Position numbers and translations under genes: made by a program
Shown here: piece after piece, positions 1-64,000 of the stretch
Layout: each line of letters begins with the position of its first letter
Position numbering within the stretch: position 1 is the first letter of the stretch
The notes under the pieces: model-generated
The model's input: the letters and a program-made list of their open reading frames with translations, nothing else
Told to the model about the DNA's origin: nothing
Databases searched by the model: none
NCBI GenBank assembly: GCA_965178125.1
Contig: OZ237737.1
Span: forward strand, 620,001 to 684,000
DNA from: Bilabrum cf. latius
Taxonomy: Eukaryota
Direction: 5' to 3'
Length of the DNA: 64,000 nt

Positions 1-1378
1 GTCATTGATGGTCCACCAAGAGCTGCCGCTAGCTATTCCTCACCCCCTTCGTTCCTGGATCGTCTCAGCGATGCTACTGCATCCAGGTTTCCTGGCGATA
101 GCACATCACCGAGCAGCCCTTGCATTGTTTCGATCCCATCGCCCCACCCCGATAGAGACAAGTATTCTACAGGGATACCTATCTTCACGCCCTCCAGCGC
201 ATTATCCCTGGACTATTCCCCCCTATCTGCAAGCACGCCGGGCTCTACCCACGCAGTACCCTCCTCTCCCTCGGCCCGTCCGCTCCTCGATTGCGCCGAT
301 TTGGCAGTACCACGCTACCTGCACTTGCCAGTGGGAGGAACCACGGCAGCACTTGACGGCCGCTGCTGCAACGAATCGGCGGAAGCATTGCCCTGCAGTA
401 GCACGCCAATCGCATCTGACAGCTGCCCAACACCCCCAGCACCCTCCATTGATGGGTGCCTCCGGGTCGCGAGGATACCTGCATCCGACAGCTCCAGCGC
501 CCTACGGAAGCAGGCCAATCGGTCCTTGGACTCGCTTCTAGGAACCACACTCTCCCTGTCGAGCCAATGAATGCTTTTTTGATCCGCGGGCCGCAGCCTG
601 GCCGAGCTGTCATCGCGCTGGTCGCGGCCAGCAACCCTGTCAAAGGCCACGGCGCAGTCGCTCACAGTCCTCGCAAACACGCCCGGGCAATCGAGTGAGG
701 ACGCGAACGCGATCAGCCCCCAGCGCGATACTGCACCGTAGGTTGGCTTCAGCCCTACAACTCCGCATAGCGCCGCTGGCTGACGGATGGAACCACCCGT
801 GTCTGAGCCTAGGGCCACGTCCGCTTCCCCAGAGGCGACGGCGGCAGCTGAGCCACTAGAGGAGCCGCCGGGCGACCAGACAAGATCGGATGACAGTGAG
901 GTACAAGTGATACTATCGGTAGACATTGCAGGGCTCCATGGGTTCACCGTTGGGCCCATGGCCGAGAAAACACCTGCTGATCCCATTGCGAACTCATCGC
1001 AGTTCGCCATGCCAGCAAGTGCAACCGGAACACCACCTTCATGCTACATGAGGCGAGACACAGCAGTGGCAGTAAACGGAGAGGAATACCCGCTCAGCAT
1101 CTTCGAGGCGCATGAAGACACGTATCCTTCCACACAGAAGTTCTCCTTGACTGCAACCCGGAGGCCTGGTCCAGACTGTAGATCAGTGGCAGGCTGTGTC
1201 AGCGCATTTGTGGAAATTCTACAAGTATGCCGCTGAAATCCAGTTGCGAATCGCGATACTACCACTCGTTGTCTTGCCTGCGAGCAAAACTTGACATCGA
1301 AGTGGCATCAAAGTGGACAAGCAAGATTCTTCCTAGTGGGCCACTTGACAGTGATGCTGCCGTGCTCACGTATAGCAT
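1..1378 (-). CDS. gatA: Glutamyl-tRNA(Gln) amidotransferase subunit A, mitochondrial (QRSL1/GatA); 3' end runs off the window
   Basis: Amidase-signature motifs [49 protein letters not shown] and downstream [12 protein letters not shown] lie in one frame when TAG at 1044, 315 and 213 is read through. Proposed exon 1 is 1378-1370 (MLY), then a 92-nt intron 1369-1278 (GTGAGC..CGCAG). This gives an Arg/Ser-rich, acid-free N-terminus ([20 protein letters not shown]) resembling a mitochondrial presequence. Confidence 0.92.
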
Positions 1379-1531
1379 GATAGTTAATTATTCAGTTACC
1401 GATACTGAAACCATGCCAATAGCCTAATCTATCGATATTTTGGCCTATCTTGACGGACGAATTTTTTGGAGCAGATTGCGTGCACTTTCGCAACTTGATG
1501 AAGCGAGGCCGATTTTTCAAGACACACAATT

Positions 1532-4500
1532 ATGGCCGACCAAGGCGTGTATGAAGTCGATGAAATAGCAATAAGCAGAGATGTTAATGAAACACTGCGT
1601 GGCAGAGTGACATCAACGTGTGTTCATGGACCGTTGGTCTTCTTGGGATCCTCAACCGGAGATGTTGCAGTTTGTGCAATTGTTGATTGCAACTTCATCA
1701 GCCGCCGCAATGAAATACTAGGTGTCCCCGATGTCGGTGACACGGGGGGAATATCGGACTCGCAGCTAGCATTGCATCAAGTGCTGCTTCTGCCGGATTT
1801 TGGCAGCAATGCGAAGCCTCGACCAAACACAGATCCTGCCGCACCTGCACAAGCCATAGTTAAGCCAGAAGGATTCATCAGCTAGATCATTGTAGTACCG
1901 GAATGGGATATGATTTTCGTGTTACGTGGCGGAAGCGTGCTGGTCTGCAATCTCCAGCTTTCTGTTGACGAGGATCTTGAGGAGCTCTTCGTGACAGAAG
2001 GCCTCGTTGGAGGCAGGCAGGCACCAGACCTGGGTGCAGACGGGCAAGGGGGTGCACTTCAAGACCTTCTGCGCAGAGAGGCGCTCGGAAATTTGGATCC
2101 TTCCATACAGTACTGCGTCGGTGGCATGCCCCTTGCTGAGGTGGCCGCCTCGTTCAGGTCCAGCCGCGACCTGGATCCCTGGATCTTGCCCGAGGCAAAG
2201 AGGGTCGCCAAACTGGCCGCTTCCCCTAGGAACTTTATGTTGTATGCATTTGGCGGAGAGCAGTCCAACATGCTGTACCGGTTCCGGATCGCACCCGAAA
2301 CCCCGCCGCCAGCCGATGCCGGTGATGGCTCGGCTGGCAGCTCCAGCGATGCGGGGATCGAAGACTTTAGCAAGCAGCTCAAGCAGGTTCCAAGGGTGCT
2401 CCGACCGGTCGCGGAATAGGTGCACTGCAGGGTGATCCGCAGGAGGCGGGCGAGACGGGAACGTGAGCGGTCACAGGCGGGTGGGAACGAGGCGCAGGCG
2501 GGCGGTGCGGGGGTCGGTTTCCTCTCTCTCCTCGGCCTGGCTCCTGCGGAGTCGCAGATTGCGCAGCATAGCCTGGCTGTGGCCCGTGTACTGGAAGCAT
2601 CCGCCCCGATGGTGCTCGACGGAGAGCCCTCCGTGGACATCATTGATATCGCCGTGATCGAGACGGATCCTGGGATCGTGGCTGCAGCTGTGGGAGACCA
2701 CCAATCGGTGGAGCAGGTGCCTGTGACTCGAGCAGATGGAAGCACTGCGATCGGAGGTGCCGCGGGCCAGGGCACCGTGTTGCTGATCGCAACGCAGATA
2801 GGCTGGATCAAGCTGGATCCTGTCACATTGGAGCCACTCGACAACTGCATGACGGCAGGCGACGTACTCCAGGAAGATGCAGAGGCAGGATAGGAATTGC
2901 TGCTTTCTCTTGGTACTGAGGGCAAGAAGAAATTGAAGCGTGGAGCAGATAGCAAGAGTCCACACGGAGACGACCGGGCGGGTGGCAAGCGGCTGAGAAA
3001 AGCCAGGTCTAGAGGGTCGTCTCTAGCGTCGAGGAGCATGGCCGAGATTGATGTGGAAGTCTCTGCGGCGACCTGCACGCCTCTTCATGGCCACGCAGCC
3101 ATGTGGGCCGCTGCCGGTGGGGGAGGTGGAGGTGCAGCAGGCGGTGCCTGGCCGGACGGTGATCCGTGCCATACTGCAGAGGCGCTGGCGTACGCCAACA
3201 CGTGCTAGGCCATGTCCAACACCAGCCATGAGTGGGCCCAGTCGGGGAGCGCGTCCAGCATTCTCGCTGCTGCGGCACTCACATCTACCCTGGGCCTCGT
3301 CCCCACCCCTGCCTCGTTGCTGGCACAGACAGGCGTGCTCGCCGGTCCGAGGGCGGCTGCAACGGCTCGAAATGCAAGCGCGGCAATCGAGCAGACGCGG
3401 AAAGAGGAGCGTTTTGGTGGAGAAGTTGGCAAGACCGTGCTCGGATGCCTGCCGGGTAACTCAGCACTAGTGTTCGGGTCATCCCTGGGTCTCAGCAGCG
3501 AGCTGTCTGGCAGCGGTGAAGACATGGGCAAGCCAAGCGCAAGACCGGGACGAAGAGCAGCCACGGGCGGTGAGGATTTTGGCAAGGGGGGTGGTGCAAT
3601 GTCCGACGCTGAAACCGCAACCCCGCCAACTGCACAAAGCAGCGGAGGCCTCAGAATTGGGGCTCACTAGGGGTGGAGCAGCGCGCGAAGAGACACGCAG
3701 AGCAGCGTCGATACCCCGAGCCTGCCCCCGCCGCTCGGACAGGTCCAATCGACCATGCCCTTCCTGCCATAGGTGTGCAGGTCCACTGCCGAGTACCTAG
3801 GCCTCATTTCGAGGCGAAGAGAAAGAGCTTACGTGGACTCTCAGCACGGCACGCTCCAGCGCTCGACGTTTGCGATACCGCAAGGAATCCCGCCCCAGCT
3901 GCCTGTCATGATTGGAGTTCGGGCCTCATCGGTCTTTGGGGACTATGCAAGCCGTGGAAGCGGTACACTGCACATGCCTGTTGGATCATTTGCCCAGCTT
4001 TTGCGGTTTCGGGGCGATGTGCTTGAACCGGGCAGGGCGATGCTGGGCGGCCCTGGTGGCTGGAGAAGTCCCTAGAAGCACGTTGCTGGCGATGGCCGGG
4101 GTGGCCCGGCCGAAGGATTTTGGCTGCAGCACCATCTGCAGCAACTTTTGTTTGGCGTGCATGGTGTCGACCATTCAGACACGGGGTGTCTGCCCACCTC
4201 GCACTGGTGCACGCAGAGAACCCGTCGGACGCTGGGCAGTGCACTTCGGGAGCTTATTGGCCACGGAAGCGGCATGAACCGCGGAACTGTTCGAGAGCGA
4301 AGTGGTGTGGCCGATGACGAACAGCTGGACCTGCATGTGCCGGGGGTACTGACGGATGCCGACGATGTGGTAGCTGCTATTGGAGCGGCAGTGAGCCGAG
4401 TTTCTGGTGACGAGGGGTCAAGGGGAAGCCCACCATCCCCAGCAGTGGTCGACCCAGGCCCAGACGATGCGAAGCGGCTGCCTGACAGCGCGACCAACGA

Positions 4501-7500
4501 GCTTCTCTCTGGGGTGCTCTGTGGCGCCGGAGAGGTGCTTCTAACCTGCGGCGGGTCCGGAAGATTTGTGGCTCCGGACGCTTCGATCGGGTCGCGGAAT
4601 CACCTGAATGCCGTCCAGTAGTTCGAACTCCGTCACGTGGCTGACGCAGTGAATGCGAGGGCTGGAATGGGCCAGGATTTTCAAGCAATGCCAGTGTTTG
4701 GCAGCTCTGCCGCTGCTGGCGAGGAGCTGCTTGGGCCCGTGCTGCATGGGGAAGTGCCTTGGTACATGGAGCAGCCACGGGGCTAGAGTGGGCCGCAGAA
4801 GTCTGGCAATGGTCGCATCGGCAGCGCTGACGACGAAGATGTGTTGGCTGGGCTGCTCAAGACGGTATCTGGTGCTAGGGACGGGGCTCGCAGGTCTGAA
4901 GCGTACGATGGCTCTCTATCCCGCCCCGTGCTGCAGCCGCAGCTGACTAGGATGATCAGTGACACTCTTGGACAGCAGCCTCTTCGGCCTTTCCATGCCC
5001 ACTGGCACCCATCCCACCGCGTGGTGCAAGGGCAAGACCCGATCATGGGGATGCTCGCCAAGACTCGGGGCTCTGCGGCAGCTGCTAGCCACCAACTTTC
5101 AATCCCGGTGACGGGACTGAGAGCAGTACCGCCAGCATCCACCATGGAATTTCAGAGGGCTGCCCCTGTGACGATCGTGCCGTCTGCCACAAGGCCGCTT
5201 CTGGTAGCTTCCGTGGGCGGCGTGCTCGAGGTGAGGCACTCTTTGACGGGTGAGCTGCTCCAGTCATCCAAGGGCGCTTGCCCAATCATGAAGGTAGCCT
5301 CAGACGCTGACGAAGATGCCACGAGGCGAGCCATGTGTGGATCTGCTGGAATCCTCGCTTCCCCCGCACAGGTATGGAGGCACGACCCGCAAGCGAATGC
5401 GCTGTTGCGTGCTAGCCGCAAACGCGCGCCCGCTTCTGCGAGTCCTTCGCTCTAGGACTGGCTGCTTCGGCTCCTGCCTAGGGCCGAGAGAAAGGCGCTA
5501 GTTGCCTTGGCACTAGCTGCGGTGCGACGGGCAGCCATTGCTGCGAACTACCTGGGGCATGTGGAAGACGAGGCCCAGGACGCGGAGAGCCGAGGCCGAG
5601 GGGCCAACGCCGGAACCGTCGGTGGAATGGGAGCAGTAAATGCTCGCGGGCGTCTCGATTCAATCGAGTCAACGGGGTCCTCGTCGTCTGCGAAAGGGAG
5701 ATAGAAGGCCCAGCCGGTGCAACCAGAGGCAGGCTCAGCCAGAACGTCTAAGTCTCCGCTTGTACAGGCTGCTCGTGCCATGCTCGCCTAGATAGAGAAG
5801 CCCACCCTATCGCTGGCTCTCGTTGAATTTGCTCGCGACTGCTGGCTTGATTGTCCCGATCAGTCCCGACGGCTGGCTGATTGGGCCGAAGATGTGCGCA
5901 TGCGGCGAGAGTGCCGCTTTGCTGTGCAAGACGGCGACGGACGGCGGAGACAGGCACAGTTTGCAGTCCTTGCTGTGCAGCTGCAGCCACCCGTCATGCT
6001 TGGCGCCAACGCTGAAAGGCAAGCAAGGTGCGCCTTTCGCGCCGGTGTCGCCGACGCGTCCATGCCCTTCGAGACCGCCGTGGAGGTGGCGCAGCAGTTC
6101 CTCCGGCTGCAGAGGGCCCAGAGCGCAGTGTCATCGTCAATCCTACTCAAGGCGGCTGGGGTGGCAGCTGCTGATTCGGAGCTGCCTTCCGTGAAGCAAA
6201 GGGGAGAATCGTCAGCGGGGGCAGCGGCTGGCGTTGCCAGAGCTGACGCGGCCTCTTCCGGGGCAGGCGTCGATGCTGCTGCGGCAGGCGCACAGCATGG
6301 CAGCTTTTTTACTTCGGGCAGCCAAAGCGCAGCTGAGGCCTAGCTGCTGACAGCACGACGCGTTGGCGCGATCCTCAAGCTGTGCGCACGGCCGCTTCAG
6401 CTAAGTACGGAGAGAGCAAGATCGCGGTCGTCGCGTGGCAGCGACATCCGCAGGCTGGCGAGGCAGGCGGAGGGCCAGCTCAGCTCTGTGGGCCAAGTCT
6501 GGGGCACAATTGAGTCCACGTTTGGATCGGGAGCGCTGCGTTCCATCGACGAGGCAAGGCGCTCTCATGCCTTCATGGTGTTTTCCGAGGGGGAGGTGGA
6601 GATGGGTATGGCCCAGCTGTGGCGATCAGGTGCTTCCATGAAGCGGGTCCTTGGCCTGGTGCCACAGGCTGTTCCTCCCAGGGTAGTGCTAGAGAGGAGT
6701 TATCCTTGCAGGCTGGGCGTGCTCATCAATTCGGGGAAGATGCGAGCACTCTCTGCTATTCTGTCGGTGCTGCTGGGCGCCAGGCACGCTAGGCTGCAAG
6801 CAGTGGACAGCAGCATCAATCCTGGGGCACACGGGCGAGACGGCTTGCGCGGCAACGTGAAAACCACCAGCGATTCGCGCCGCATACTCGAGCTGGCCAA
6901 GCAAGGCTCCTTTGCCAGGGTGCTTGGCTCCTTGCTTGCCGGGGCAGAAGATGTTGACACCACAGAGCCGGAGGAACCTGACCCGAAGCTACCACAGCCC
7001 GCCCCGGTATCGGTGATCGCCCGTTCTGTCAGAGCTGGCCACATCAGGACTGGGTATGTTGCGCCAAGCACCAGTATTGTGACGCGTGACGACGGGGCCG
7101 AGCGGGGCAGGCACGGCGCTGCACGAGAGCTCGTATACCCGTACCTGCTAGATTTCGCTGCTTGGGCAGCTGGAGGCGTAGGCACTTCGGTCATGTCGGG
7201 CAGTCGCGGCGACGACTTGCCTAGCTCCTCGATGGCCGTCCCAGCTAGCTTGCTGCAGGGGCTTCTGCAGCAGCGGCAGATCGCCCCTGCCGCATCTGGT
7301 GCTGGCGCTGCTGCAGGACCGACGTCTTCGGGCGAGCTTGTGTTGAGACCAGGTGTGAGCGAGGACCAGTTCAACGCTGTCGCCCGGTCCTTGGCCATCT
7401 CGAAGGCGGAGCATAGGCCGGCTTTCGAGAGGCTGGTCCTCTCGCCAGAGGCTCTGGTAGACACCGCTTGCGTGGGTGTGCTGTGCAGGATAGAGACGGC

Positions 7501-10500
7501 GCTGTTTGCGGCATGCAGCTTAAGGCTGCACCGCAAGACCTCCGAGATCGCAGACGTGGCGCAGGATATGGTACCACTTGTCGCGGCTGTGGGTGATGAT
7601 GGCAACCTTAACCAGGTGGAATGCGTCGACCGCCCATTGTGGCAGCTAGATTCCTCTTGCGCTGAGCTGGATGCCAACCTTCGCATGCCTCACTAGATGC
7701 CAGAGAGCACGGTGGTGGATCCACTGGATGAAGCGTGGCTCGACGGATCGTTTCCCTCTGCTGCGTTGCCGCGCCATGGGTTCCTGCGGGATGAAATGCG
7801 GGATGTGGCTGGCGCCAGATCTCTGCTCCGAGCCGGAAGCAGCCCAGCCATTGCCCGATCCCAAGCCCGCTCATCAGATGCTCGCCGCACGCTCCACACC
7901 GCCGCGACCGCGACGCAGTCGCAGTTTGCAGGGCAGGACGCCTTCTCCAAGGAATCGATGAAGGCCAGGCTGGCAGAGTCTAGGGCCGCGCTATAGATTT
8001 TAGTGTGTGACGCGAGCCAGGAAGCTGACCTTGAGTCGGCAATGCTGCAGCTGTCAGGGTGTGCACCGAGCTTCAGCGACGGCGCTACCCAGGCCGGCAC
8101 TATGCCCGGTGGGGACTCGGACGCTCCAGCGCCTGACGAGGCACGACGGAGCGCCCCCGGAGTCCCCACCGGCGCAGGAGCTTCGTCCCCGCTGGCCCGC
8201 TATGTGCAGGCTCTGCCTCGTTGGACCGACGAGCTGGGCAGCCTGCTGAGCATCGAGCACTTTGACAGCCCCTCGGGGGCCGAGGTGCTGGTCCTGTCAA
8301 ATGCACAGCTCCCTCTAGCATCCTGGATCCTGGGCCCAGGGATGCGGTGGAGAGAAAGGGTGGCTCTGGTCTGGTCCAAGGGCGAGAGGAGGCTTGCGCT
8401 GAGGATGGTTTCCGAGGCGTGCGCGAGGGCTGAGCGGTCTTGGCTGGCGATGCGATGGAGAGTGCACGCACTGACAGAGGGCATTCTACAGCCGGGCGAT
8501 ATCCTCGACCAGCCGCTGCAGGACCCCTTGCAGACCTCTCTGTACAACGCGGGTGCTAGCAACTCGGCCGCCATCGGAGATTTTTCTGACGATGACGACT
8601 CGGACGACGATGGCACACCAGTTGTGGCAGGTGCTGGAAAGGGGAACGTGCAAGGCAGCGATGGGGCCGCATAGGGCACCGGACACACAGACCCGGACGA
8701 TGCGAGTCTGGAGGTGGCAACAAACAAGATACTTTCGGTCGCTGGCCGCGCGCTGCAGAGAGTAAGAAGGCTGAGGCAGGTGTGGACCGGCATGGTGTCG
8801 AGGCTCGGTCGGGGCGAAGAAAACGTCGCGATCGAGTTCTTGTCGGAAGCCAAATACGCCGCGTGGTTCGACGCGAGTGGAGTTGCATCAGTGGGCGCCG
8901 CGGGGCACATGGTAGGCCAACCGGCAGATGTTTGGATGGAATCGCGGGCCAACGTGCTAGAGAAGCTAGCGGAAGACGCCGCCATGGAAAGAAGGAAGAT
9001 CGTCACTGCTGCCACTGTAGCTGTGGCATTTGGCCCCGCCGTGTGCGGGCTAGCGACGGTACTGCCGTAGAGCACTGCAGTGCGGCGGTTGGGCAGCGCC
9101 CGAGAGGCGTCCGCGAGGGCATTTGAGCTTCTGTCCCAGTCATCAAAGGCGCTCGGTTCAAGCGTGACGGAGCTTGTGCCTGAGTGTGCTCCACTTGTTG
9201 ACTGGATGCTGGAGAAGGACCCTTGCCTGATTGCCGTGCGAGGCGCATGCAGCGTCATCGGGGGTCGGGCGGGCGCGGGGCTGCAGGCCGACATGAAGCA
9301 GAGCATCTACGTGGCCAAAGCAGCCGTGCGGGACCCTCCCATGCGGGAATTGCTGGATCGAAGCAGGCACTATTGCCTGCCGGCCTTGCTCTCGTACGAC
9401 CTCGGACTTGGACTGGGGGATGCTGCGGCGGCTTGGCCAGAGGAGCAGGACAAGGACGCAGCGATCGTGCAGTCTAAAGGAGGCATGCCTGCTTACTCGC
9501 TCTGCAGGCTGCCCGCATCCGGTGGCACGGAGCTTGATGGGTATGCGGGGAATGGCGCGAAAGAGGCAGGCTGGTTGTGTTTGGACCCAAGCGCGCTACT
9601 GCCTACTGTGTGCGCAGCTGCGTGGTCAAAAGCGAGCGCATCCTTGCGTGGGCAGAGTGGTGACAGGCTAGCAGGGCGAGAGGTGGCGCTTGTGACCGAC
9701 TTGCACCGCGGCATGTATGCCTGGCCCCGGAGCGTGTCGCGGGCGTTCATGCTGCATGCTTGTCTGCACAGGCACTCTGGGCCGCTGGAGGGCACAGTGA
9801 GCGATGATGTGGCCGGGCTGCCAAGTCCGGCGGTCCGATCCCCGTCTTTGATGTACACACTACTTCACGACCTGGCGTCTGCGTCTCAGCAGCTCGCAGC
9901 CGCCGGATCTGAGTCCAGGGGGGCCGCTGCGGGTGCTAGCTACCTGCAGCGCGCAATCGCAACCGCGGCAGGTGGGGAGTCGTTTGATGGCGTATCGCCT
10001 CGACGCAAGTTGTCCGGCGGCACTGGTGCTAGCAGGAGAGAGTTGATACAGCTAGATGTCATGGACCCCCGTGCCCGCAGCTCTCTTTCGCGTCTATGGG
10101 GCGTGCACCTGGCCGTCTGCTAGTCGAGAGCGTAGCTGCTGCGCGTCGTTGATGCAGTTTTCGCGGCCGCCACTCGCATGCAGGTGCACCTGTCCCAAGT
10201 GGCGCAACGCAGTCCCATGGCCGCCCTGCAGGCTAGCATGGCGCTCGTGGTGAATCCCGAGGCAGTGCTATCGCTGGTGCGGCCGGCATGTCCCGTGTCA
10301 ACGGCCGTGGTGCAAGCCAACCTAGGCATGCAGAGCCATGCAGTTCATTCTTTGTTCGAACTGGTCAAGAGCGGTGTACCCTCGGTGCTGCAAGGGCTCC
10401 TTACCGACGATGCACCTGCTCCGGCTGACAAGGACCAGCCAGGTGCAAATGACAGGCTGCAGTCTGGAGGCTCCGTGCGGGATAGAATGGGTGGGAACTC

Positions 10501-11230
10501 TTCGGATGCCCGGCGTGCAGCGATCGCACAGGCGCCACTCAGCGTGTTGCAGGCTTGTAGCCAGTCCTGTGCAGAGCTAGTGCTGCAGGTATGCGACATG
10601 GCGCGGTCGAAGGGTTGGCCGAATGCCGCCGTGTTGAGCGAGTTCGTGTGCCGGTCCGTGCTGGGCAGCAGGTCCGGTGGCAAGCACCGCCAGCGACCAG
10701 GCGCACTGGTGCATAAGGCTAAGCCGGGCGATGCGGCGGTAGAATCGATCGGTATTGGCACGCCTGATGTGCGCGTCAAGCCGCATCACCTGCCGCTGAT
10801 GCTCCAGCGCGAGCCCGGTCTTGGCTTGCTCCTTGCCTTCGCGGCAGACCACGTCGCCGGTAGCAGCGCCGGAGCAGGAGGCCCCACTGCTGAGGGAAGA
10901 GCCGCGGTGTTGGGCCGCAAAGGCCAGTCCACCGCGCTGGATGTGCTGCCCGATGCGTCCACCGTTGCGGCTCTGCTACCCGTGATGCGAAACACCATGC
11001 GGTAGGCTGGGTCCGAGGCTTGGTCTAGCTCCGTGCTTGCCCGGCTGGAGAGGAAGCAAGGAGCTGAGAGCACGGAAGCGGTGCGGCGGGCCATCGATGA
11101 TGTGACTGCGGAACAGGAAGGTAAGCGCGACGGCACTGGCAGGGCAGCCAGCGGCTCCAGCGGGGAGGGAAAGGCAGCCAGGTCTAGTCCCAAGCAGGGG
11201 AGGCGGCAGCGGTTGAGGGATCGTCGGTGA
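1532..11230 (+). CDS. Giant (~3232 aa) protein with CNH-like beta-propeller segments, Vps39/Vam6/TGFBRAP1-like
   Basis: Track ORFs from 1532..1885 to 11033..11230 share one frame and are separated only by about 20 TAG codons; the first TGA is at 11228. Segments TCVHGPLVFLGSSTGDV, IS[Q]IIVVPEWDMIFVLRGGSVLVCNL and PLLVASVGGVLEVRHSLTGELLQS resemble CNH-domain motifs of Vps39/TRAP1. The CDS is well supported, the family call only moderately. Confidence 0.7.
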
Positions 11231-11508
11231 ACGCGCGCTTAGGCGCAAGAGGGTATCATTTGGTAGTTCGAAGCCAAGGTTCTCAACGGAACTACGGCCG
11301 CTGATGCTCAGCCCTGCGCACCGACTGGTCTACCGAGACGGACCGACTGAGTTCAGGTACATCTAATAGTTCCGTTTTGTGTGCCGCACGGGATGGTGCT
11401 GCGGTGCGGCTGATTCACAGCGCACAAGGAGGTATCAATATTGTGTTGCATTTAGATTCAAGTCAGACAAAGTGAATGTCGCCGGCAAGAGGCCAAGCAA
11501 GCAGCCAC

Positions 11509-13020: not shown

Positions 13021-13126
13021 AGCTGTAGTATATGCCCGGTAATCCTGCAAGAGTGACAGATCTGGTATGTGGCAAAACTGCACGGTATAATACGCTGGAG
13101 CGGCCGAATAATCCATTTGTTCAGCC
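13021..13126. promoter_or_regulatory. Putative bidirectional promoter between Rpn9 and cyclophilin
   Basis: 106-bp AT-richer spacer between head-to-head start codons. Inferred from gene geometry only. Confidence 0.45.
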
Positions 13127-13937
13127 ATGTTGCGCCGTGTAATGACTGCTTCAAGCCGAGTCGCTCTTAACGCTGGTCGCATTACATCTGCGGCAGTCGC
13201 AGCGCATGGGCTGTTCAGCACATCCGCCGTTGCCGCAGAAGGAAACCCCAAGGTCTTCTTCGACGTGGCAGTGGATGGCGAAAAGCTTGGCCGCCTCACG
13301 ATGGAGCTGCGGGCAGACGGTAAGATTGCTAGGTTATATCGTATTACTTTTATACACTAGGATTGCATGTTGGTGTGAACTCCACTGGTTGCAGCTCTAC
13401 CCCCGCAGTGGCTCCCAAGACGGCTGAGAACTTCCGCGGGCTGTGCACTGGCGAGTACGGAACGGGACAATCAGGCAAAGAGCTTGTAAGAACAATTTAT
13501 TGATAATCATATTGTGGTGATTACAGCAGCATATGATTAGTTTTCTTCCTAGTGGCATCTGCTCGCAGTCTTACAAGGGCAGCAAGTTCCACCGAATCAT
13601 CCCGGATTTCATGGCCCAAGGTGGCGACTTCACCGCTGGCAATGGAACTGGCGGTGAGAGCATTTACGGGAGGACATTTTAGGACGAAAACTTCAGTCTG
13701 AAGCACGACCGCCCTGGTCTGCTGTCCATGGCGAACGCCGGCCCCAACACGAACGGGTCCCAGTTCTTCCTGACGTTCGTCCCTTGCCCGTGGCTGGATG
13801 GTAACCACACCGTGTTCGGCCAGGTGGTGGATGGCGCAGAGCTCCTGCGTGATATGGAGGCGCTTGGCTCCAGCAGTGGCAGGACCCGATCCACCGTGGA
13901 GATCGTGGATTGCGGGGAGATCAAGGAGGAGGAATGA
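13127..13937 (+). CDS. Cyclophilin-type peptidyl-prolyl isomerase, probably mitochondrial (CypD/PPIF-like, ~212 aa)
   Basis: Exons 13127-13319, 13409-13485 and 13569-13937. Motifs [46 protein letters not shown][TAG 13680]DENF and [14 protein letters not shown]. The N-terminus ([14 protein letters not shown]) looks like a mitochondrial presequence. Confidence 0.95.
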
Positions 13938-18715: not shown

Positions 18716-20677
<1,962 letters not shown>

Positions 20678-38663: not shown

Positions 38664-38849
38664 CCCCGCTCAAGCTAGCGAATTATCTATGTAAGTACGA
38701 TTTTCAACGGAGTACAAGCGAAATATTGGACAGGTACTTCCGTATACCCCTGTTTTTCTTTGCACGCCAAACGACACGGAAGGGTGCAGCCCACTGTACT
38801 GCCATCATGGTTGCGAGAGCGGCACATTGGGTCAAGTTTGAGTAGAAGT

Positions 38850-53500: not shown

Positions 53501-56500
53501 GCGGCCACATTCATGCGCGCTGCACCCACAGAGCTGCCAAGGCCCGAGATCCCGCTGCTGTCTGTCCCAGCCGCAGCTACCTCCCGCATGGCCTGCTCCT
53601 CGTCACCCATCGCCTTTCGCTGCTGGGCAGCCGCTCGGTGGTGGCTGGCACCGCGCTTCGGTCGTCCCGACTGCAACGGCTGGGCGGCAATTTCCCGAAG
53701 AGACACGAGAGCCGCGCTTCTCCTCTCCCGCGCAGCTGCGTGTTCCGCCCCCACGTCCACTTCGGCGGCCATACTCACCCGCTGCCCCCCTGGCCCTGTC
53801 TTCTTCGACAGAGATACCTGTGTGGCTGCGTCAGCAAGATGCTTAGACTACTCTAGCAGCCCATCCAATCGCAGCTCAGTCTTCTCCTGGCCCTGCCGGA
53901 TCTTGGAGAGTTTTTGGTGCCGGGTGACCATTTCCCTCAATGAGGCAGCCCCGTCAGCCCTGTACCGGCTCAGGTTGAACACGCGACACAGCCGGTCGGA
54001 TGTCACGACGAGCAGGCACAGGCTTACCGGGTCGAAAGCTAAGCCAGCAACTGAAACGGCTGCTGTAGTCTGGTCGATCCGGTTCGTGCTGTGCCTAGTT
54101 GTGCCAAACGAGGCTGCCTGAGGCCCAACCGTGTCGTTGTACGAATTTCCGCTCGACTCGCGTGTCGATCTGTTGCCTCGCTCGACTCCATCTGGCTCGG
54201 CAGCTGCTGCCTGCGAACTGCTCCGCGAGCCGGAGTACAGGCCTTTCTTGGCATTTTTCCGACCACTGTGCGCAGCTTTGGGCTGCAGTGCGGCCGCGAC
54301 AATCTGGCGTGCCTTAGCTCTAGCTTCTCCCAGAGTCATACCAGCCAAAGCTGGGTCGGAGCCGAGCTTCCTGCTAGCAACAGCGCGACGCTTCTGATCC
54401 GCCAAGTCATCCACAGCTGAAGAGCCGAGATGACCGGTGACTGTTGGTCGAACGACGTTTCCATGTTCGTCACATAGACCAAACTCGGCAGGTTTGTCTG
54501 AAAACGGCAGGGCATGCTTGGGAGGGTTTGCCCTGGTGCCCACATCAAGCGTGAGGGCGTGCTGCAGCGTATCTGCCCACAAATGCACGGCATTCGTTCG
54601 GTACCCCACGGCGTACCCTTGCAGGGCAGGCAGCAGAACGAAGCAATTCGGTCGAACTCCGCCGTTTTCGGCCAGGACAGACGAGCCTGGCGTGGTCGGG
54701 TTGGGCGTCTCGATCATGTAGGTGGCTTGCGCCCGCTGGACCGCCAAGGCATTCCCAGCCTCCCGCAATAGGAAACTCACGTACTCAGCGAAGCTCAGGG
54801 TCTACGATGAGTCTGCATCCATTCGGTGGAAGCTCGCAACGATTGCTTCCGCTGGCAAAGTGCTGAGGCGAGTGAGCAGACCCACAAACTCTGTCTCTGT
54901 GATTCCCTCCTGCGGATGCAGCACACCGGCGCCGATCGCCATTCCATGAGAGCTTGCAGCACCAGACATGTCAGCCCCATTGCTTCCATCGGCATTGCTC
55001 CCATCCGCACCGCTGCTGCCGTGCGTGCTGGATATGTGCCGGAACAGGGGCTCAAGCACAGGCAAGTGGGCCGTGATGTCATTAATGGGATCTGCCTCGA
55101 AAGACTCCTGGAGCTGACGCAAAGCAGGAAGAGGGGTGGAAGCAAGAGCATGCCCCTGCCGAACGCCGATCTCGTAAAGGCTCTCCGCGGCCCGCGTCTC
55201 CATGGGGTACACGTCCGCATCGATCCTCCACTTCACCCGAACCGCAGCCCCAGGACAAGGAGTACCGCTGATCGAGACCTCTACTTCATCGCCATCGGAT
55301 GACCGTGATGAGAGCTGCTCGCTCTTCAAGTTGATGCTCGCCTCCACGCGGTCTAGCTGCTCGGTCGCTCCAGTTGGTGCACCGCTAGGCAGGGTACCGT
55401 GCAGCAGCAGGGGGTGCTTCAATCTCACGCGCTGGGGGGTCTAGAGCGCCTCAAGCACAGCAGGGCTGGGGCGCAGGGGGAGCCAAGTGTCAAGAGCAGC
55501 AGGTCGCGTCACCCCTCCACTCCGTCGGCGACGCCTTGCTCTTGCCGCGTCAGCTCTTGCTGCAAGTTCGACCCAGTTGTGGGCAGATATCTCTGGCACG
55601 CCACCGTTAGCGGTGGTGAAACCCACCGGCATCACGCTCGCCAGAGCCACGGCCCCGCCCCGAGATGCGACATCTCCCATCGCAAGCGCAGGACCGAATA
55701 CGTTAGAGTGGGGATCTGAGCACGGATGCACGGGGAGGCATTGCGGCACATCTCCGAGCTGGATGGTCACGCTTCTCCTCTCCATCGCGGACTTGGCGAC
55801 TGGGGCACCTGGCGCTCGCCCGGAACCGGCAGCTTCGCTCTCCGCGTCTCCTCGGCTGCTGCCGGATGCCGTAGAGGCACCATCGGCAACACTATCCCCG
55901 TCCCTCCCCGAGTCCTTGGTTGCTCCACCCTTCCCGCGAGCGCCAAACACGTTTAACACGCGCGTCGCCTTCTGCTGCGTGGACCGCTTCTTTACGCTGT
56001 GCTTCGATTGGGCGCGCTGGGTGACCTCTTCGGCCGCCGCTGCTGCAAACAGTCGGTGTCCGAACACGGCAACCCCGACGTGCAGGACACACGTACCCAG
56101 CAAGATCTGCCTGCTGGAATCGGACGCGTGCTTGGCTCCGCCCACGCGTGGAGAGGCCCCCTGCAAGATTGCTTCCTCCTCTGGCAACACAACCGAGGAC
56201 CGTCGGCCTCTTCGCACCGCTGCTCCTCTGGCAGCAGAGCTGTCCCCGCTGCCCTGCTGCCCCAAGGCTCCCGCCTCGGTGTCGAACTCGGCGTCGTCGT
56301 CAGATTCATCCAGCACTATCCTGCCCTGCTGCCTTGGCTTAGAACCCCCACCCCCGCGCCTGCCTTGCGTGCCCCCACCCTGCGACCTGCCGGCTCGCCG
56401 GTCCTGTCCCTTTCCGAGTACATGGGCTGCGGCAGAGATGCCACCGCCACGCACCGAGTACAACGACAGCTGAACCTGCGAATCAGCGCAAAAGTTGTGC

Positions 56501-58959
56501 AATCTCACTCGGAACACCTGCCTGAACTTGGGCCGAAGGGACTGGGGCACACTGACAGCCGCTGTCCTGGAGAGCAGCACCTCCTCCCGTCGCGGCTTGA
56601 TGGCAAATAGCATCTGCTAGCCAGCCTGCTACCGCTGATCAGCGTCTAGACGTGGCGCAACCAGCTGCAGCCCAACGGCGATGTCCTCGGTAGTGGTTCG
56701 CCGTTCCTCTTCCTCAGCAGCGTGCTCCGCCTGCACTGCTGCAAGGAGGGCTGTAGCAACGCTGCCGCGACGATGCCTTGCCGACCTTGCGGCAATCTGC
56801 TTGCTGCGCGCAACTGCTCGAGTGCGATCCGAGTCTGGATCGCCCGCAAACCGCACCCCCTTCTCCTCCCCTTTGCCACCGTCCTCCACCGCATCCTCAT
56901 CTCCAACTATGCCCGCGTGGTTTGCCTTCACCTCATGATGATGGGCGGCAATGCTGCCTCTTCTGTGCATGCTCTGGGCCACGTCTCCCATGCCTAGCTC
57001 AGCACTGTCTCGACCTGAGCCTCCCCCATCTGGAGAAGGCGCTCGGAGGGTTACAGAGAACCCTGTGCCCGCGCTTTCGCCCTTCTTGCCTTGGTTCGAA
57101 CCACCAAAGGCCGCCTGCTCCAAGCTGGCCACGCTGGACGTCGAGCCCCGTCTCTGCTTCTGCATCTCGATGGCCTGCTTTGACTCGTGGTGTGCAGCGC
57201 CGGAGTGCACCCGCTGGGTCATGACGGCGTCCACGCCAGATCGCAGAGCCGAGATCTTGGTGCGGGTGGAGGCCGTGACAGCCTTGGCGTCAATGCGTAG
57301 GGAAGCAGGGGCAGCGAGGCTTCCGATCGCATCGGCGCTGGCACTGCTGCGTCTTCGCTGGCTAGTCTGATTCGTTGACCTACCAAGCTTTGCGCTGGTG
57401 CCAACCTACTCCAGCTTCCTCCGGAGGATGTCCACCTGTCGGGAGGCAGGGTCCTGGGCCAGCATGTTGCCACCCGAGCTGCTCGCCCCGTGCAGCAGAG
57501 CATCGTGCAGCAGGACGAAGGAGGGGGGCCCGCCGTGCAGCATCGCGTCCAGCTGGTGCTTCCACAGCTTGGCACCCCAGCTCCTTGCCTCGAACCACGC
57601 GTCCTCCTCCATGACCTCGTGCGCCTCTGCCTCCGTCATAGGGGGGCCCCCGTTAGGAGACCCAAACATGCTACGGGCCGTCATGCCGGGAGTGGAGGCC
57701 AGCGCGCTGGTATCTAGCCCTGTGCCAACGATGGTAGAGGGGCAAAGGGGTCCGCTCACCAGCAGCCGCTTGGCAGTGAGCGCGTCCTCCACGTCAATCG
57801 ACGTCACGATGCGACCTGGGGCGGCTATTGGAGTCAGGACCACGTCTGCCTCCCCGCCCGCATCCCCTGCTTGGGACCGACTCGTGGACAAGCCGCCGTC
57901 GAGGCCGCCTTCCTGTCCCCCGTGGCCAGAGTCCCGGTCGACCATCGGAGACACGGCCGCTGCAAAGTGGGCCCCGAAACCACCGGGTGTGGGGGCAGAC
58001 CCCAATTCACCCCTGCGCCGCCTGGTGGATTTCGACCCGCCGTACCGTCCATGCCCCGAGCTACGCGCTCCGTCTCCGTCTTGCAGAGCCCAGGCGCCCC
58101 TCACCACGCGAGGACCACCCGCCACGCCCGCGCATATCGCGTCCATGGGATCGGCCATGCGAGCAAGCCCATCGATCAGTGCCTCTCTGTCGCGGAGAGC
58201 CTTAGACATGCTCCTCGACCCGGAGTCTGCGCCCCTGCCCGACCGCCTCGAGGTCGAGCTCCGCTTGGCCTCCTCTAGTCGATCCATCCTCGTGTCGGAA
58301 TCGTCGCGAAGCAGCGCGAACCGCTGTTCGACGTCGTCAGCGCGTGGAGAGACAGCACTTTGTTTCGTCTGAATGGCTACTCGCGCGGCTCGCCTGGTTG
58401 TCTGCGTGCTTTCCCTCCCTATGCCCATCGTGGCGACGACCTCGGCTCCCAGCACCGAGCGCAACAAGCGGCTTCGCTTCTGAAACGTTCGTCTTGTCCA
58501 TTGCTTGAACCCGCGCCAGCGATTGGCAGCAGCTCTGTCATTGGCTAGAAGTTCGGCTTGCTTGTAGTCAAACTCTCCGGTCGATTCGGTGGAAGCTGAG
58601 CGAAGCCTATCAGCTCCGCCTGCCTTTGGGCTAGAGGTACGCTTTTGGTGATCACGAAGCGCATCTGCGGCATCATCGCGCTTTTTGAGCTCGTACTTCT
58701 CAACATGCTCAGCCAAAGCCTGGGCAACATGAACAGCACGAGCAAGGGGCCGCAAGTCTGCCTCGTTTATCTCAATCGTTAGAGTAACGCTCGATAGCGT
58801 CGTCCTGTCCTCGCTGATCGCATATGGGCCTGGATGAATAGAGTTCATCTTTGTGACGCAGTGCGGGTTGTATGCCCGGACCACTACTGCCGCGTTTCTT
58901 GTTTGGAGCTTTGTGAATCGGCCAACGGATCCATGCGGTCGCAACCGCCGCAACCTCAT
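47542..58959 (-). CDS. Giant (~3770-3800 aa) EF-hand + WD40 protein, WDR49/WDR64/EFCAB8-like
   Basis: Nine track ORFs lie in one frame separated only by TAG. EF-hand FHRMDADSS[TAG]TLSFAEYVSFLL is followed by WD40 repeats (VVTCGFDRRLLLWD, GRLTVWD, LLTGAVDGSIRLWN, LATGSSDGQLVLWN). Start is ATG 58959 or 58848. Ends at TGA 47542. Confidence 0.78.
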
Positions 58960-59031
58960 GGTCGCACCACGGCGACCACAGGACTTTCTTTGCGGATTGA
59001 ACGTCTAATCATCAAATTATCAATGATTTCA

Positions 59032-61560
59032 TCAGGCAGAGTCGGCTGCACGGCGGCCGGCCGCTATTTCTTCGCCCTGCGGCTGGACGTGACTGTCGCT
59101 CGTCCCAACACCCGCTGCACCGCCGTCCTCATGTTTCTTCGCGGCATCCTGCCTCCTCCAGTACCCTTGCACCAGCTCCTCATCCCGCTCCTGGGGCGGC
59201 CGCCCCGACGCCACGCGTGGCCCGCACAGCCCCCCCACGCACCCCACTCTCGGCCTCATCACCAGCCCCTTGTCCTCGTCGTCATCCACCTCTGCCGCGC
59301 CCAGGGAGGAAGACGAGCCGTTGGGCGCACCTGCGGGGGCCGTGCCACCACTAGCGGAGGAGGACGCCGCGTTGCGTTCCCATGCCTCACGCCTGTCCTC
59401 GATCGGAGCCTCGAAGGGGTACTCGCTGGTGAGACCCAGGGGCTGGGGTGGGGGCGGCTGCAGCACCGGCAGCACCACCGTGCTCTCGGGCTCGAGGGAG
59501 ACTCCCCGAGCGAGCTTGAGCCTGTCTTTGTTCTTGCTGGCGAACGCCATCGGCAGGTAGTGCTGCTGCACGCCGGTGTTCGCATCGATGACCACCACCG
59601 TGCGCAGGTCGGCTCCCTGTTTCTGACGCCTGAGCCTCCGCTACGCCCTGCGGCGAGCTCGACGGATGGCCGCGGCCGCTTTCTGCTGCCGTTCCTCCTC
59701 CTCTCTCTCCTCCCGCTCCAGCCTCTCTCTCTCCTCCGGATCCAGGGCCGCCATGGCGATTCCCCCGCTGGCTCGCCTCCCGCCGTGGCTCCGCCTCGGC
59801 GCGCCCTTCCCCAGGTCAGCCCCTGGACCCCCACCAGCAGCCCCGGAAATCGCCCTGGCAGACCCGGCAATATCCCCGCTCGCCTCGCGCTGATCCGGTC
59901 CAGTGTTCCCCAGTAGGGCCCCCTGCTGATCGTCAGACTCGGAGTCGTCATCATCCATGTGGGACAGCTGCCCCACAAGAGAGAACAAGCCGCCCTTCCT
60001 GGCGGGCGCAGAGGACAGCAGGAAACTGCCCTTGTGGCGGAGGGTGCCACCGCCTGATGCGCCGGGGGCCGAGCCATCACCTCTAGCACGCAAGCCGGGT
60101 GGCATCTCACCCATCTCGTTGCCGTCCCCCCCGGCCCCCGCCCCGCCACCCACAGGCACCACTGTGGCCGGCCCCGGGGCCCTCCTCACCTGCGAGCCAG
60201 CATTCCCGCCCGTGTCGGGGCCCGCAGCCCCGGTTGCCTGGTCCAGCAGTGCTTGTGCCAGGTCGGACCCCTCCAGCCCCGCCTCCACCCGCGGGCTCAT
60301 GGCCTCGAGCATCTCCATCACGCTCGCCACCAGCTCCCCGCAGACCACACCCTCCAGGTCGTGCTCCACGGGGATGCGCTTCTGCGGCAGCCTCGCGAGG
60401 CCCATGAGCACCTCTTGCTCCGAGAGCTGCCCGTCCCCGTCCTTGTCTACCAGCCTGAGGAAGCCCCTTGCATCCGCCTCGGTGACCGACTTGCCCCTGA
60501 TGTCTGATAGCAGGGCGCGCACCTCGCTGGCTTCGATGTACCCACTGCGGTCCTGGTCCGCTCGCTAGAAGGAGCGGTGCACCTCCACTGCCACCTGAGG
60601 GGGCACCTGCCTCACTGCGGCCCACACGCGGGGCAACAGCATGTGCACCAGCTTGCGGCCGAAGGGAGTGAGGTCTGCGCGACCCATCGTGCGCCAAATG
60701 GGAGGAGCGGTGCCTGCAGTGGCAGATGTGCCCCCACTCCGCACGCTAGACCCGTCGTCCGATGCCCCGCTCGCGGCAAACTCGCCGGCTCGGGTTAGTC
60801 GGGAGGCCCCGGGAGGCTTGACCACGCCAGGAGCAGCATCACCCGCGCGACCCAAGCTGCGAGATGACGTGGACACTGTGGGGCGCATGGTCTATCTGGC
60901 ACGATTCGCCCTGAAGCGGGGCATCTGCGGTGCCCATGTAATCCCTCTCGCGGCGCAGTCAAGCAAACCGTTGAAAATGTCGTGTCTCGCATCTGTTCTC
61001 TACAGGATCAAACGGCGAACAACATACTGCGATGCTGAAACGGATACATTTAGCAGTCCACGGGCAGTGCCATGGCGCACTTGGCCCGATCATCTGGCAA
61101 GCAAGGCAAACAGCTCACATGCGACCCAGTTTCTTCCAGTTCTCGGAGCCTTGCTACCAATGGAGATAGCTTCAGACCAGCTATACCTGGCTCGCACAGC
61201 CACAATCGATCCTCGTGCTGCAGGATGATCGCTAAGTGTGACCATCCGCTCAAAGCTTGTCGCTGCACGGAAAAGTAGGCCCCGTTCGACGTCGATACCA
61301 CACCCCGTATCAGACCGGGCTACAGCGACCCTACGGTTGTATGGACCTGCTTTCGAATCAATAACAGATCACCAGAACGCAAATCACCAGCATGTACTGC
61401 GGGGAGCGATCCCCAAGCGCCCATTCGGGCGAAAAATTGGCAGACGAAACCGCAACCAATGGATTGCGGTTTTTCGCGCTTGGTTTGTGATTTGACACGT
61501 TACTCGAATTGCTGGGTCCGCCCGCGTCACCCTTCTGGGCGTCACCAAGAGGCAACCTTC
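59032..61560 (-). CDS. Permuted papain-like (YiiX/YebB-type NlpC/P60) amidase with an inserted EF-hand pair; 5' end uncertain
   Basis: LRSGDLLL, WSHLAII, LWLCE..GLKLSPL and YVVRRL (across the 92-nt intron 61118-61027), then EF-hands F[TAG]RADQDRSGYIEASE and VDKDGDGQLSEQE, then VVCGELVA and HYLPMAF..LKLARGVSLEPE. A further intron is tentative at 61503-61397. Ends at tandem TGA (59032). Start codon not resolved. Confidence 0.68.
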
Positions 61561-61843
61561 CTGTTTAGTGCAAGGTACGCATTGTAAGAACACCATTACA
61601 TCCACCTACAGGAAAATTGCTGGCATGAACGGTTGCATTGAGAGGCCTGCAGAGATGCATCCTGCTTCTCGAAGAAGAGTGTTCGCAGCAACATTGCGCT
61701 GCGAATGGTGCTGCATACCGACTTGATTCGCTTTCCTCTCGTTTTGTCCTTTTTAGATCGCAGATAAGCGCTGTTCGCTCTGCCCTGCCATTCTCAGCGA
61801 TCGTGTCGAACAGCTGTGGTTCGCGCTGACCTCATAAATTATA

Positions 61844-64000
61844 ATGGCGGGGCCAAATCGAATGCAGGATGGTTCCGTTGTATTTGACGTTGTAAAGGTG
61901 AATATGTTTGGCACCCACTAGCCCCGCAAGCTCCGGATTCTCGTACAGTCTGATGCGAGTGGGGACGACCGTGGAGATGGAACCTTGTGGATTCTTACGA
62001 CTGGAATGGGAGTAAGACGAAATCTTCCTGCCAGCCGGCTGCAAGCATTGGTAGAAATATTACACTTGTAGGCCAGAGAGAATGCTCGGGGCTTGCAGCT
62101 GCAGTTTGGTGAGATGGGGCTCACTGCTACCCGAACTCTACTGTTCTCGTCGTCGACTGAACGGGACGAGTTCGTGGCATTATTTAGCCGTCTGGTCGGA
62201 GCAAAGGCCATTGCACGGCCGCTATTAAAGCTTGGCAGCGCACTCGGGGGTGCCGGGCCGGCGAGTGCCTCGAAGTCACTCGCCTCTGCGGATAGCCATG
62301 CCAAGAGCGTGCAAGGCCACAGCGGGAACCACCTCGTCGCCATAGAGAACCTGTACGGCTTCCAGTGCAACCGAGTCACGCAGCTGGACACATCCAGCTG
62401 CATGCTGCGCATCCTCGAGCAGCCCGCCATGGACAGCACCAAGGCGAGCGTGCTGCAGGCCCACTCCCTCTCCCGCCTGGAGCGCTTCGACGTGCACTCG
62501 GTGGACCCCTGCGCCCTCGGCCTGTGCTTCCAGGGCGACAGAGCGGCCTCTAGCGCCCCTGCACAGCTGGTCATATCCTTCCGTTCGCGTGACGAGCGCG
62601 ATGATTTCGTTGAGGCGCTCAAGCCCGTGGTGGACCGCTCGGGTGCCACCGGGGAGGACGGGGGTCCTCTGCTGCCCAACTACACGTGGAGGGTGCCGCT
62701 GCCCGTCAGGAAGTGGTTCCGGTTTCTCGTGCATCGCAAGGCAGGGGGTAGCATGGGATCCGGGAAGGAATTCATCCTCATGTGCAGCGTGCGGCACCGG
62801 ACGCTCAATTTTATCGACTCGGCCGAGCTGGCTGCGCTGGGGGGCGTGGAGGCCCATTTCATCCCGGACACGGTCAAGATCGCACAAACTATCAGCACCC
62901 TGCCCGGAGCCATGCAAGTGGAGCTGGACCCGGCCAACCCTAGGCGAATTCGATTCTCGACAGACACGCCGGGCACGCCTGTAGGCGACCGGCGGTACAT
63001 TGACATTGAGCTGCCCACTGCTGGGGAGAGGCAGCGGCTCTCTGCAGTCCTAAACTCGATTGCAGCCGCGCCCACGGCAAGCAAGGACAATCAACCGTCG
63101 TCTGCCGCCAGGCTAGCCGCCCGAGACCCGGCCCCTCCAGTTGTGCCCGCCCTGTGGCATGCGGACTGGCCGCACGACGAGGTGGGCGTGTATGTGGGCA
63201 CGTACAACGTGTCGGGGTAGCCACCTCCTGGCCCGCGAGAGCTGCAGAAATGGATCCCATTCCCGTTCAACAAGGCCCACGACCTCTACGTCCTGGGCTT
63301 TTAGGAGATCGGATCGGCTGCCAACCGCGAGAAGTGGGGCAAGGCGCTTTTCGAGTTCTTGAATACGAACCCGAGATCCGCTGGGCTGGACCCAATGCAG
63401 ACAGAGCGGAACCGGTCGGCCACGGTGGCTGCATCAGCACACCCACTGTACGGCGACCTGTCCGGAGGTGGATCGTCTGGCGCTGGGGCAGCAGAGTAGT
63501 CCGAGTCGGCGCCAGAGCCGATCCACACCGGCGGGTATCTTCAGGTTGCCCACGCCTTTATGTGGGAGATATCTCTATGGGTGTTTGTGAGGGCACCGCA
63601 CGCCGGTGACATCTCCAACGTGCAGACGCACTACGAGCCCACGGGCCTTGCGCTCCTGAAGAACGTGACGGGGCAGCAGCTAGGCAACAAGGGTGGGCTG
63701 GGCTGCTCGCTGACGTGGAGGAGCACCCCACTGGCCTTCGTAAACTGTCATCTTGCTGCGAGACCAGAGCGCATTCCGGAGCGCGAGTCTGACTTTCGCT
63801 AGATTGTTCGGAACTTGCAGCTCAACAGCAGCATGCAGGGGTACGGGCTGGATTTTATCCATGGGCACGAGCACGTGTTTTTCTTTGGCGACATGAATTA
63901 TCGCGTGGATCTCCCATTTGCCACGGCGGTGGACTGCCACAAGCGGGGCGACTACCCGATGCTGGCCAGCAACGACCAGCTAGCCAAGCAGAAGCAGCTG
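61844..64000 (+). CDS. Inositol polyphosphate 5-phosphatase (INPP5B/OCRL/SHIP family) with N-terminal PH-like repeats; 3' end runs off the window
   Basis: Motifs VYVGTYNV, DLYVLGF[TAG]E, GNKGG, AFVNCHLAA, VFFFGDMNYRV and NDQL lie in one frame from ATG 61844, interrupted only by TAG. Confidence 0.92.

Follow-up and report, generated by a model that had tools for sequence, protein, structure and literature searches.

UAG probably specifies glutamine, with UAA and UGA kept as stops, in a 64-kb stretch of nuclear DNA from a likely stramenopile

What does UAG mean in a nuclear genome in which it stands inside nearly every gene? This question is raised by a 64-kb stretch of contig OZ237737.1 (assembly GCA_965178125.1, Bilabrum cf. 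latius; positions 620,001 to 684,000), hereafter called the window, which is nuclear DNA of an intron-poor eukaryote with 61% GC. A preliminary description, made from the letters alone, had proposed that UAG is decoded as glutamine (Gln) genome-wide. The core of this proposal stands: UAG is a routine in-frame codon that is transcribed, occupies Gln columns of protein families, and exchanges with CAG between species. We conclude with high confidence that a dedicated UAG = Gln code operates, in which UAA and UGA are retained as stop codons. A code of the table-15 type, common to the window species and at least one sister species, would be the best explanation of these sequences. The evidence comes from the window and from a 3.9-kb contig of the sister species, and the genome-wide part of the proposal extrapolates beyond them.

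In-frame TAG was found in 18 of 21 gene segments (the 19 main segments plus the cyclophilin and LYR-family genes), in agreement with the earlier statement that nearly every gene is interrupted. The segments free of TAG are the polyubiquitin gene and the last exons of an inositol monophosphatase (IMPase) gene and of a calcineurin-B-like gene. The 19 main segments comprise 18,264 codons, among which 97 TAG were counted alongside 550 CAG and 154 CAA, TAG accounting for about 12% of the Gln-type codons. When TAG was opened, open reading frames (ORFs) of at least 500 codons covered 57.7 kb of the window instead of the 14.6 kb covered under the standard code, while opening TAA or TGA yielded 16.4 kb and 33.8 kb, respectively. 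Matches from Pfam, NCBIfam and PDB stay in frame across TAG in the amidase/GatA-like, Yju2, ULK4 kinase, tubulin-tyrosine-ligase (TTL) and EF-hand proteins, and matches of the inositol polyphosphate 5-phosphatase, cyclophilin, LYR and KamA-like proteins are likewise uninterrupted. The claim that frameshifts are absent around TAG holds in these proteins. Six TAG sites singled out in the preliminary description were found in the frames given there, four on the plus strand (15368, 15605, 61919 and 63302) and two on the minus strand (26599-26601 and 60565-60567).

Since gene ends had been defined as TAA or TGA, which makes a count of ends circular, frames were also called by codon usage blind to stops, a procedure that singled out one frame in 61 of 142 blocks. 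TAG occurred 4.0 times per 1000 codons in the coding frames thus called versus 6.4 times in the other frames. TGA (1.5 versus 13.6 per 1000) and TAA (0.2 versus 2.3 per 1000) were both depleted about tenfold in the coding frame, and the residual cases fell mostly into blocks that span gene ends, as judged by coordinates. Among the 19 complete gene models, 17 end with TGA and two with TAA. Ends anchored by homology are few, and all of them are TGA: the database proteins P0003 and P0272 terminate at the TGA of the KamA-like gene, where the sister-species contig L001 has TGA as well, and the TGA of the cyclophilin gene lies six residues past the Pfam match. Both models ending with TAA lack a close full-length homolog that would anchor the end. 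These data support that UAA and UGA stay stops.

The residue for which TAG stands was addressed in family alignments. At 15368-15370 (plus strand), between VFP and PDM of the KamA-like radical SAM protein, TAG faces Gln in nearly all sequences compared (115 of 120 database proteins; 78 of 79 other loci). Eight of these 79 loci have stops, which are confined to query positions 394-410 of 413 and were read as gene ends. In the 5-phosphatase, the TAG at 63302-63304 (plus strand), between LGF and EIG, is matched by Gln in 91 of the 105 homologs aligned there (Cafeteria protein P0122 among them; gaps in 11), and the TAG close to the N-terminus (61919-61921, plus strand), between GTH and PRK, by Gln in four of five aligned homologs, again including Cafeteria. 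When 10 of the 20 residues were tried at 63302, Pfam scored Gln best (109.1 bits), followed by Lys (106.9) and Glu (106.2), with Tyr at 101.5 and Leu at 100.4. The TAG at 26599-26601 (minus strand), between CLR and SAS of the ULK4-like pseudokinase, lines up with Gln in both ULK4 chains that were listed (6u5l and 6tsz). Two of the sites considered diagnostic in the preliminary description, the EF-hand site at 60565 and the KamA-like site at 15605, do not discriminate, as detailed below.

Other sites fall into less conserved columns. The TAG at 63800-63802 (plus strand) within the 5-phosphatase domain faces Glu in 36, Gln in 31 and Asp in 27 of 142 homologs, with Gln in P0121 and P0122, and fragments P0126 and P0277 from close relatives stop just short of it; three further TAG sites of this gene lie in variable columns. 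Alignments of YJU2 and the 5-phosphatase with PDB entries reached variable TAG sites only. In the TTL domain, the TAG at 38058-38060 (minus strand) corresponds to Gln in the close relatives P0298, P0414 and P0415, and is variable in distant homologs, in which all five TAG sites were variable or gapped. Scoring of the columns was carried out for the 12 TAG sites of the window with at least four aligned residues. Gln ranked first with a score of 2.7, the next being Ala with -4.2, and Gln remained first over 14 sites after addition of sites from L001. As controls, 58 of 61 sense codons were called correctly by this procedure, and none of 5000 random draws of 12 non-Gln sites attained the score of Gln. 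Scoring of the context of neighbouring residues, run without a positive control, gave no usable signal, with Gln in 7th place. A word-index search for homologs with the whole 5-phosphatase yielded no match, while the HMMER library search did find homologs.

Comparison with a second species provided information at the level of DNA. Metagenome contig L001 (3.9 kb, 54% GC) carries the KamA-like gene followed by the YJU2 gene, i.e. in the same order as in the window (951-3897 of L001), and the main exon is 94% identical to that of the window in protein and 81% in nucleotide sequence. L001 has in-frame TAG codons at positions of its own. The alignment of 650 codons contains five positions at which TAG faces CAG, in both directions and including 15368 and 15605, two with TAG in both sequences, and one each with TCT and TAC opposite TAG. 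TAG/CAG pairs therefore make up five of the seven TAG/sense pairs, compared with a background of 10 in 1232 non-Gln codons facing CAR (binomial p about 7e-10).

Many fragmented proteins of the same clade, 71-99% identical to the window, are present in the Logan, ENA and JGI collections (P0003, P0123, P0126, P0271-P0277, P0291, P0292, P0297, P0298, P0308 and P0414-P0416), and the spread of identities points to several strains or species. These close relatives span six TAG sites of the window, where they have Gln at four, Glu at one and Ala at one. Fragments P0271 and P0274 end exactly at a TAG of the sister species. Of 16 internal C-termini of such fragments, eight lie before a CAG/TAG of the window, two before a known TAG of L001 and six elsewhere, a pattern which, at the level of proteins, is no more than suggestive.

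To follow TAG into transcripts, contigs of independent sequencing runs were used. Eight runs of four studies contained 50% or more of the words sampled from 11000-20000, and four runs were compared over 1-18600. In run X4, a single contig matches the whole of this region with zero differences and may be the source of the window DNA, while X7 matches in unspliced pieces. Runs X5 and X8, which belong to two studies, show GT..AG joints at eight introns. As neither X4 nor X7 has these joints, we infer that X5 and X8 contain spliced RNA, although the runs are not recorded as such. Their spliced contigs retain TAG at 27 sites (X5) and nine sites (X8), including 15368 in both, and no other letter was seen at these sites at the consensus level. 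Since spliced contigs carry TAG unchanged, assembly error and majority U-to-C editing are ruled out at the covered sites. Retention of UAG in mRNA, which the preliminary description had left to RNA data for confirmation, is thus seen at the consensus level.

Several observations weigh against this interpretation. The TAG at 15605-15607 (plus strand), inside the CxxxCxxC motif of the KamA-like protein, lies in a His column (His in 115 and Gln in four of 120 proteins; His in 79 of 79 other loci). As L001 has CAG at this position, the sequences speak for a His-to-Gln replacement in the TAG-bearing clade, with Gln spelled as TAG in the window; P0271, P0272 and P0274 have Gln here as well. The gene callers behind the database proteins may have applied different codes, and the Gln in P0272 could stem from a call with table 15. 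Two sites do not discriminate and favour merely polar residues: in EF-hand_7 (60565-60567, minus strand), Gln, Lys and Trp tie at 49.5 bits, next to Arg with 49.4 and Leu with 45.7, which marks a sense codon and is not diagnostic of the residue, and in exon 3 of the cyclophilin gene (13680-13682, plus strand; TAG unchanged in spliced contigs), Pfam assigns 128.2 bits to Glu, 128.1 to Lys, 127.9 to Gln, 126.2 to Leu and 126.1 to Tyr. When the two columns with more than 80% Gln were dropped from the column scoring, Ala and Ser ranked above Gln. One TAG of L001 faces TAC in a column with Tyr in 69, Gln in 40 and His in nine of 120 proteins, and one TAG of the window faces TCT in L001. The site at 63497 corresponds to Glu in two fragments that are 97-98% identical to the window and to Ala in one ragged alignment. 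The RNA status of X5 and X8 is a guess, contigs lose minor variants, and X4 may be no independent witness of the window. Finally, no tRNA gene was found in the 64-kb window and eRF1 is not among the genes annotated there by profile matches, the window being the whole of the genome covered; tRNA-Gln(CUA) and a modified eRF1 are postulated.

How do other explanations fare against these data? The main remaining rival is a residual stop role of UAG, i.e. a dual meaning in which UAG is Gln inside genes but still terminates in a subset of genes or close to the poly(A) tail, eRF1 having kept part of its recognition of this codon. Terminators of this type would be invisible in our count of ends, and the last TAG codons of NSUN5, YJU2 and the gene at 45295 lie in low-complexity tails without homologs. 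Moreover, ORFs of more than 300 codons have slightly more TAG in their first fifth relative to CAR (23 of 82 TAG versus 114 of 644 CAR; KS p 0.04), which may result from unmodelled 5' introns or wrong starts. However, TAG shows no depletion towards the 3' ends, as the last fifth of the same ORFs holds 15 of 82 TAG versus 136 of 644 CAR, and the ends anchored by homology (P0003, P0272, L001 and cyclophilin) are TGA. We regard a dual meaning as very unlikely. Even smaller is the chance that UAG stands for an amino acid other than Gln (Leu, Tyr, Glu, Lys, Ser or His) or for a mixture. The His column at 15605, the single TAG/TAC and TAG/TCT pairs and the Glu at 63497 would suit such an assignment, but no alternative residue recurs, the exchange with CAG prevails in the comparison with L001, Gln heads the column scoring with either set of sites, and Leu, Tyr and Trp remain 7-9 bits under Gln in the 5-phosphatase.

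A table-6 code, in which UAA and UAG are both Gln and UAA is merely rare in a GC-rich genome, appears comparably far-fetched. TAA is indeed scarce in every frame of the window (47-92 per frame), and neither of the two models that end with it has an anchored end. But two very long ORFs, with 3,242 and 3,824 codons, contain no TAA at all in spite of 154 CAA versus 550 CAG in the main segments, the depletion of TAA in the stop-blind coding frames resembles that of TGA and not the behaviour of TAG, and opening of TAA alone adds almost no ORF length. Finally, TAG could be an artefact of assembly errors, of pseudogenes or of U-to-C editing by which the mRNA regains CAG. All that favours this idea is that the evidence consists of contigs, which conceal minority variants. 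It is at odds with the agreement between window and runs of four studies, which show no other letters at covered TAG sites and keep TAG in spliced contigs, with the lack of frameshifts in matched domains, and with the diverged sister species, which has TAG at its own sites and at whose TAG the fragments P0271 and P0274 end. An artefact has a negligible probability in our view.

How might a UAG = Gln code with UAA and UGA as stops have come about? According to the accessible text of PMC5304391, decoding of UAG without UAA requires a CUA anticodon as well as an eRF1 with weak binding of UAG. By analogy with known cases, a duplicated tRNA-Gln(CUG) could have acquired CUA through change of one anticodon base, which would pair with UAG and not with UAA, and recognition of UAG by eRF1 would have been lost or weakened. 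CAG-to-TAG transitions may then have spread as near-synonymous changes, more so in genes with low GC content at third codon positions (GC3) and not at all in polyubiquitin. The share of TAG drops with rising GC3 (Spearman -0.54, p 0.017, 19 genes), and the polyubiquitin gene (18716-20317, minus strand; 533 codons, by length seven units plus one residue; TGA end) has a GC3 of 0.92 and spells all 49 Gln as CAG, with no TAG. The GC3 trend and the TAG-free polyubiquitin gene fit a minor, non-preferred codon that CAG-to-TAG transitions keep supplying. Avoidance of TAG may reflect selection for efficient translation.

The host was assigned by comparison with named proteins. The best named match is from Cafeteria roenbergensis/burkhardae for both the KamA-like protein (74%) and the 5-phosphatase (41%), Cafeteria being a bicosoecid stramenopile that grazes in the sea. 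A midpoint-rooted tree of the KamA-like protein was built with 38 rows, i.e. 34 of the top 35 matches (P0003 omitted) plus P0283, P0272, L001 and the window. In this tree of a patchily distributed gene, the window, P0272 and L001 form one clade (100/100), which is sister to the group holding Cafeteria (98/92) at a distance of 0.7 substitutions per site. In the 5-phosphatase tree, made from 37 of the top 50 matches, Cafeteria is nearest by path and the branching is not settled. A bicosoecid or close bigyran affinity of the host is quite likely from these comparisons.

The assignment of table 15 has been reported for nuclei of other protists, namely Iotanema spirale (PMC5304391) and the ciliates Hartmannula sinica, Trochilia petrani and Protocruzia tuzeti (PMC11687900), the following details being those of the accessible text of these papers. 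The fornicate Iotanema resembles the window in using UAG for Gln and UAA as stop, and a tRNA-Gln(CUA) derived by a one-base anticodon change is predicted there; a T32G change in eRF1 has also been proposed. In contrast to the window, it belongs to an unrelated lineage and its primary stop is UAA instead of UGA. The three ciliates share the codon assignment, which is likewise seen at Gln columns. In these ciliates, 78-84% of the genes contain UAG, which compares with 18 of 21 segments in the window, whereas UAG amounts to 18.5-31.8% of the Gln codons versus about 12% here, and their stops are dominated by UAA, while the window is GC-rich, stops with UGA and is probably from a stramenopile. A suppressor tRNA was not found in Hartmannula sinica and Trochilia petrani either. 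Table 6, found in many ciliates, hexamitid diplomonads and ulvophytes, has UAG = Gln too, as far as the accessible literature goes, but reads UAA as Gln as well, whereas TAA ends genes in the window. UAG = Leu is a nuclear code of the rhizarian exLh and of ciliate metagenome-assembled genomes from TARA. Such a code was rejected for the window, as Leu was the lowest of the 10 residues in the 5-phosphatase and EF-hand scans and fell outside the top eight in column scoring. Among lineages in which the nuclear meanings of UAG and UAA have come apart, the accessible text of PMC11687900 and PMC5304391 names one rhizarian, Iotanema, Scotinosphaera and a number of ciliates, and no stramenopile. The type of code is already known from other protists, and it is the lineage that is new, as an independent instance.

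Within stramenopiles, our literature search, from which subscription journals and supplements were largely absent, found no nuclear reassignment of UAG, and the accessible portions of PMC11412368, PMC12574857, PMC10767852, PMC12153298 and PMC8547959 report no nuclear reassignment in this group. The nearest oddity in the accessible literature is the creation of stops by polyadenylation in Blastocystis. In the accessible text of the Cafeteria genome paper (PMC6972860) and of a paper on Cafileria (PMC6723347), a non-standard code is mentioned only as mitochondrial UGA = Trp. Because of this, and because annotated homologs are full length, we infer that the nuclear code of Cafeteria is standard. 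Cafeteria burkhardae (= roenbergensis strains; accessible text of PMC6972860) is intron-poor and GC-rich like the window, with about 70% GC versus 61%. The window thus likely holds the first nuclear stop-codon reassignment in stramenopiles. That the UAG = Gln code is unreported, of stramenopile origin, clade-wide and old, and arose in a GC-rich genome in the sister lineage of Cafeteria, is in our estimate a probable scenario, though less secure than the code itself. Explanations by AT pressure would not apply, because the code would have arisen in a GC-rich genome.

Reassignment of UAG alone is rare, and a new independent case may serve to test which changes in eRF1 and tRNA permit the loss of UAG alone as a stop. 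Contrasts offered by this lineage are its GC-rich genome, the use of mainly UGA as stop, the recoding of no fewer than two species, and a relative that is in culture, has been sequenced and apparently follows the standard code. As gene callers cut the proteins of this clade into fragments in public collections, the lineage would escape metagenome surveys. An antiviral benefit of UAG = Gln for these grazers is pure conjecture, to which the present data lend no support. The full statement, that this is the first stramenopile case and that the code was favoured or kept because it corrupts genes ending in UAG that belong to the giant viruses, virophages and other elements infecting such grazers, is unlikely. 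If the antiviral reading were true, viruses of the clade would be expected either to avoid the stop codon or to be recoded to match.

The remaining features of the window are as follows. The KamA-like gene (14320-16525, plus strand; start approximate) has four exons, three TAG, a TGA end and three RNA-supported introns (joints 14459/14639, 14714/15011 and 15185/15283). Its N-terminus is rich in Arg and Ser and, judged by eye, resembles a mitochondrial presequence. Homologs are mixed among bacteria, fungi, Lingula, Branchiostoma and Acropora, which suggests lateral transfer. Next to it, the YJU2 gene (17123-18469, plus strand; TGA end) has three TAG, two of them in common with L001. Upstream lie the cyclophilin gene (13128-13937, plus strand; start approximate) with three exons, one TAG and TGA at 13935-13937, and the Rpn9/PSMD13-like gene (11509-13020, minus strand) with Pfam PSD13_N and PCI, three exons (joints 12678/12768 and 12843/12932) and a TGA end. 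Exon 1 of the latter (12931-13020, minus strand) has three TAG, of which two are adjacent, within its first 12 codons, and the last exon contains one. The 3,242-codon ORF (1502-11230, plus strand) has no Pfam match, 20 in-frame TAG and a TGA end; no splice joint was seen in the X5 contig over 2457-11230. One X5 contig joins this ORF to the convergent Rpn9 gene, a hint of overlapping 3' ends. At the left edge, a GatA-like amidase exon (3-1276, minus strand) runs off the window, its four in-frame TAG all being covered by spliced X5 and X8 contigs.

To the right of polyubiquitin, the ULK4-like ORF (21013-26787, minus strand) has 13 TAG and a TGA end, and the TTL-like ORF (34701-38669, minus strand) has 14 TAG and a TAA end. 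The last exon of the IMPase family gene (39200-40011, plus strand; start approximate) is free of TAG and ends with TAA, and the NSUN5-like ORF (42354-44609, minus strand) has three TAG and a TGA end. The LYR-family gene (44759-45233, plus strand) comprises three predicted exons with TAG at 44798 and 44987 and a TGA end. Its Complex1_LYR matches lie on single exons and under the curated cut-off. The name ISD11 goes back to the preliminary description. The 3,824-codon WD40 ORF (47542-59016, minus strand) has 10-11 TAG, and the EF-hand ORF (59032-61089, minus strand) has 3-4; both end with TGA. The 5-phosphatase ORF (61838-64000, plus strand), with six TAG, runs off the right edge. Finally, an ORF without Pfam match (33200-34619, plus strand) stands back to back with the ORF at 29185-33165 (minus strand), and the C-terminus of the former looks like an Smr domain.

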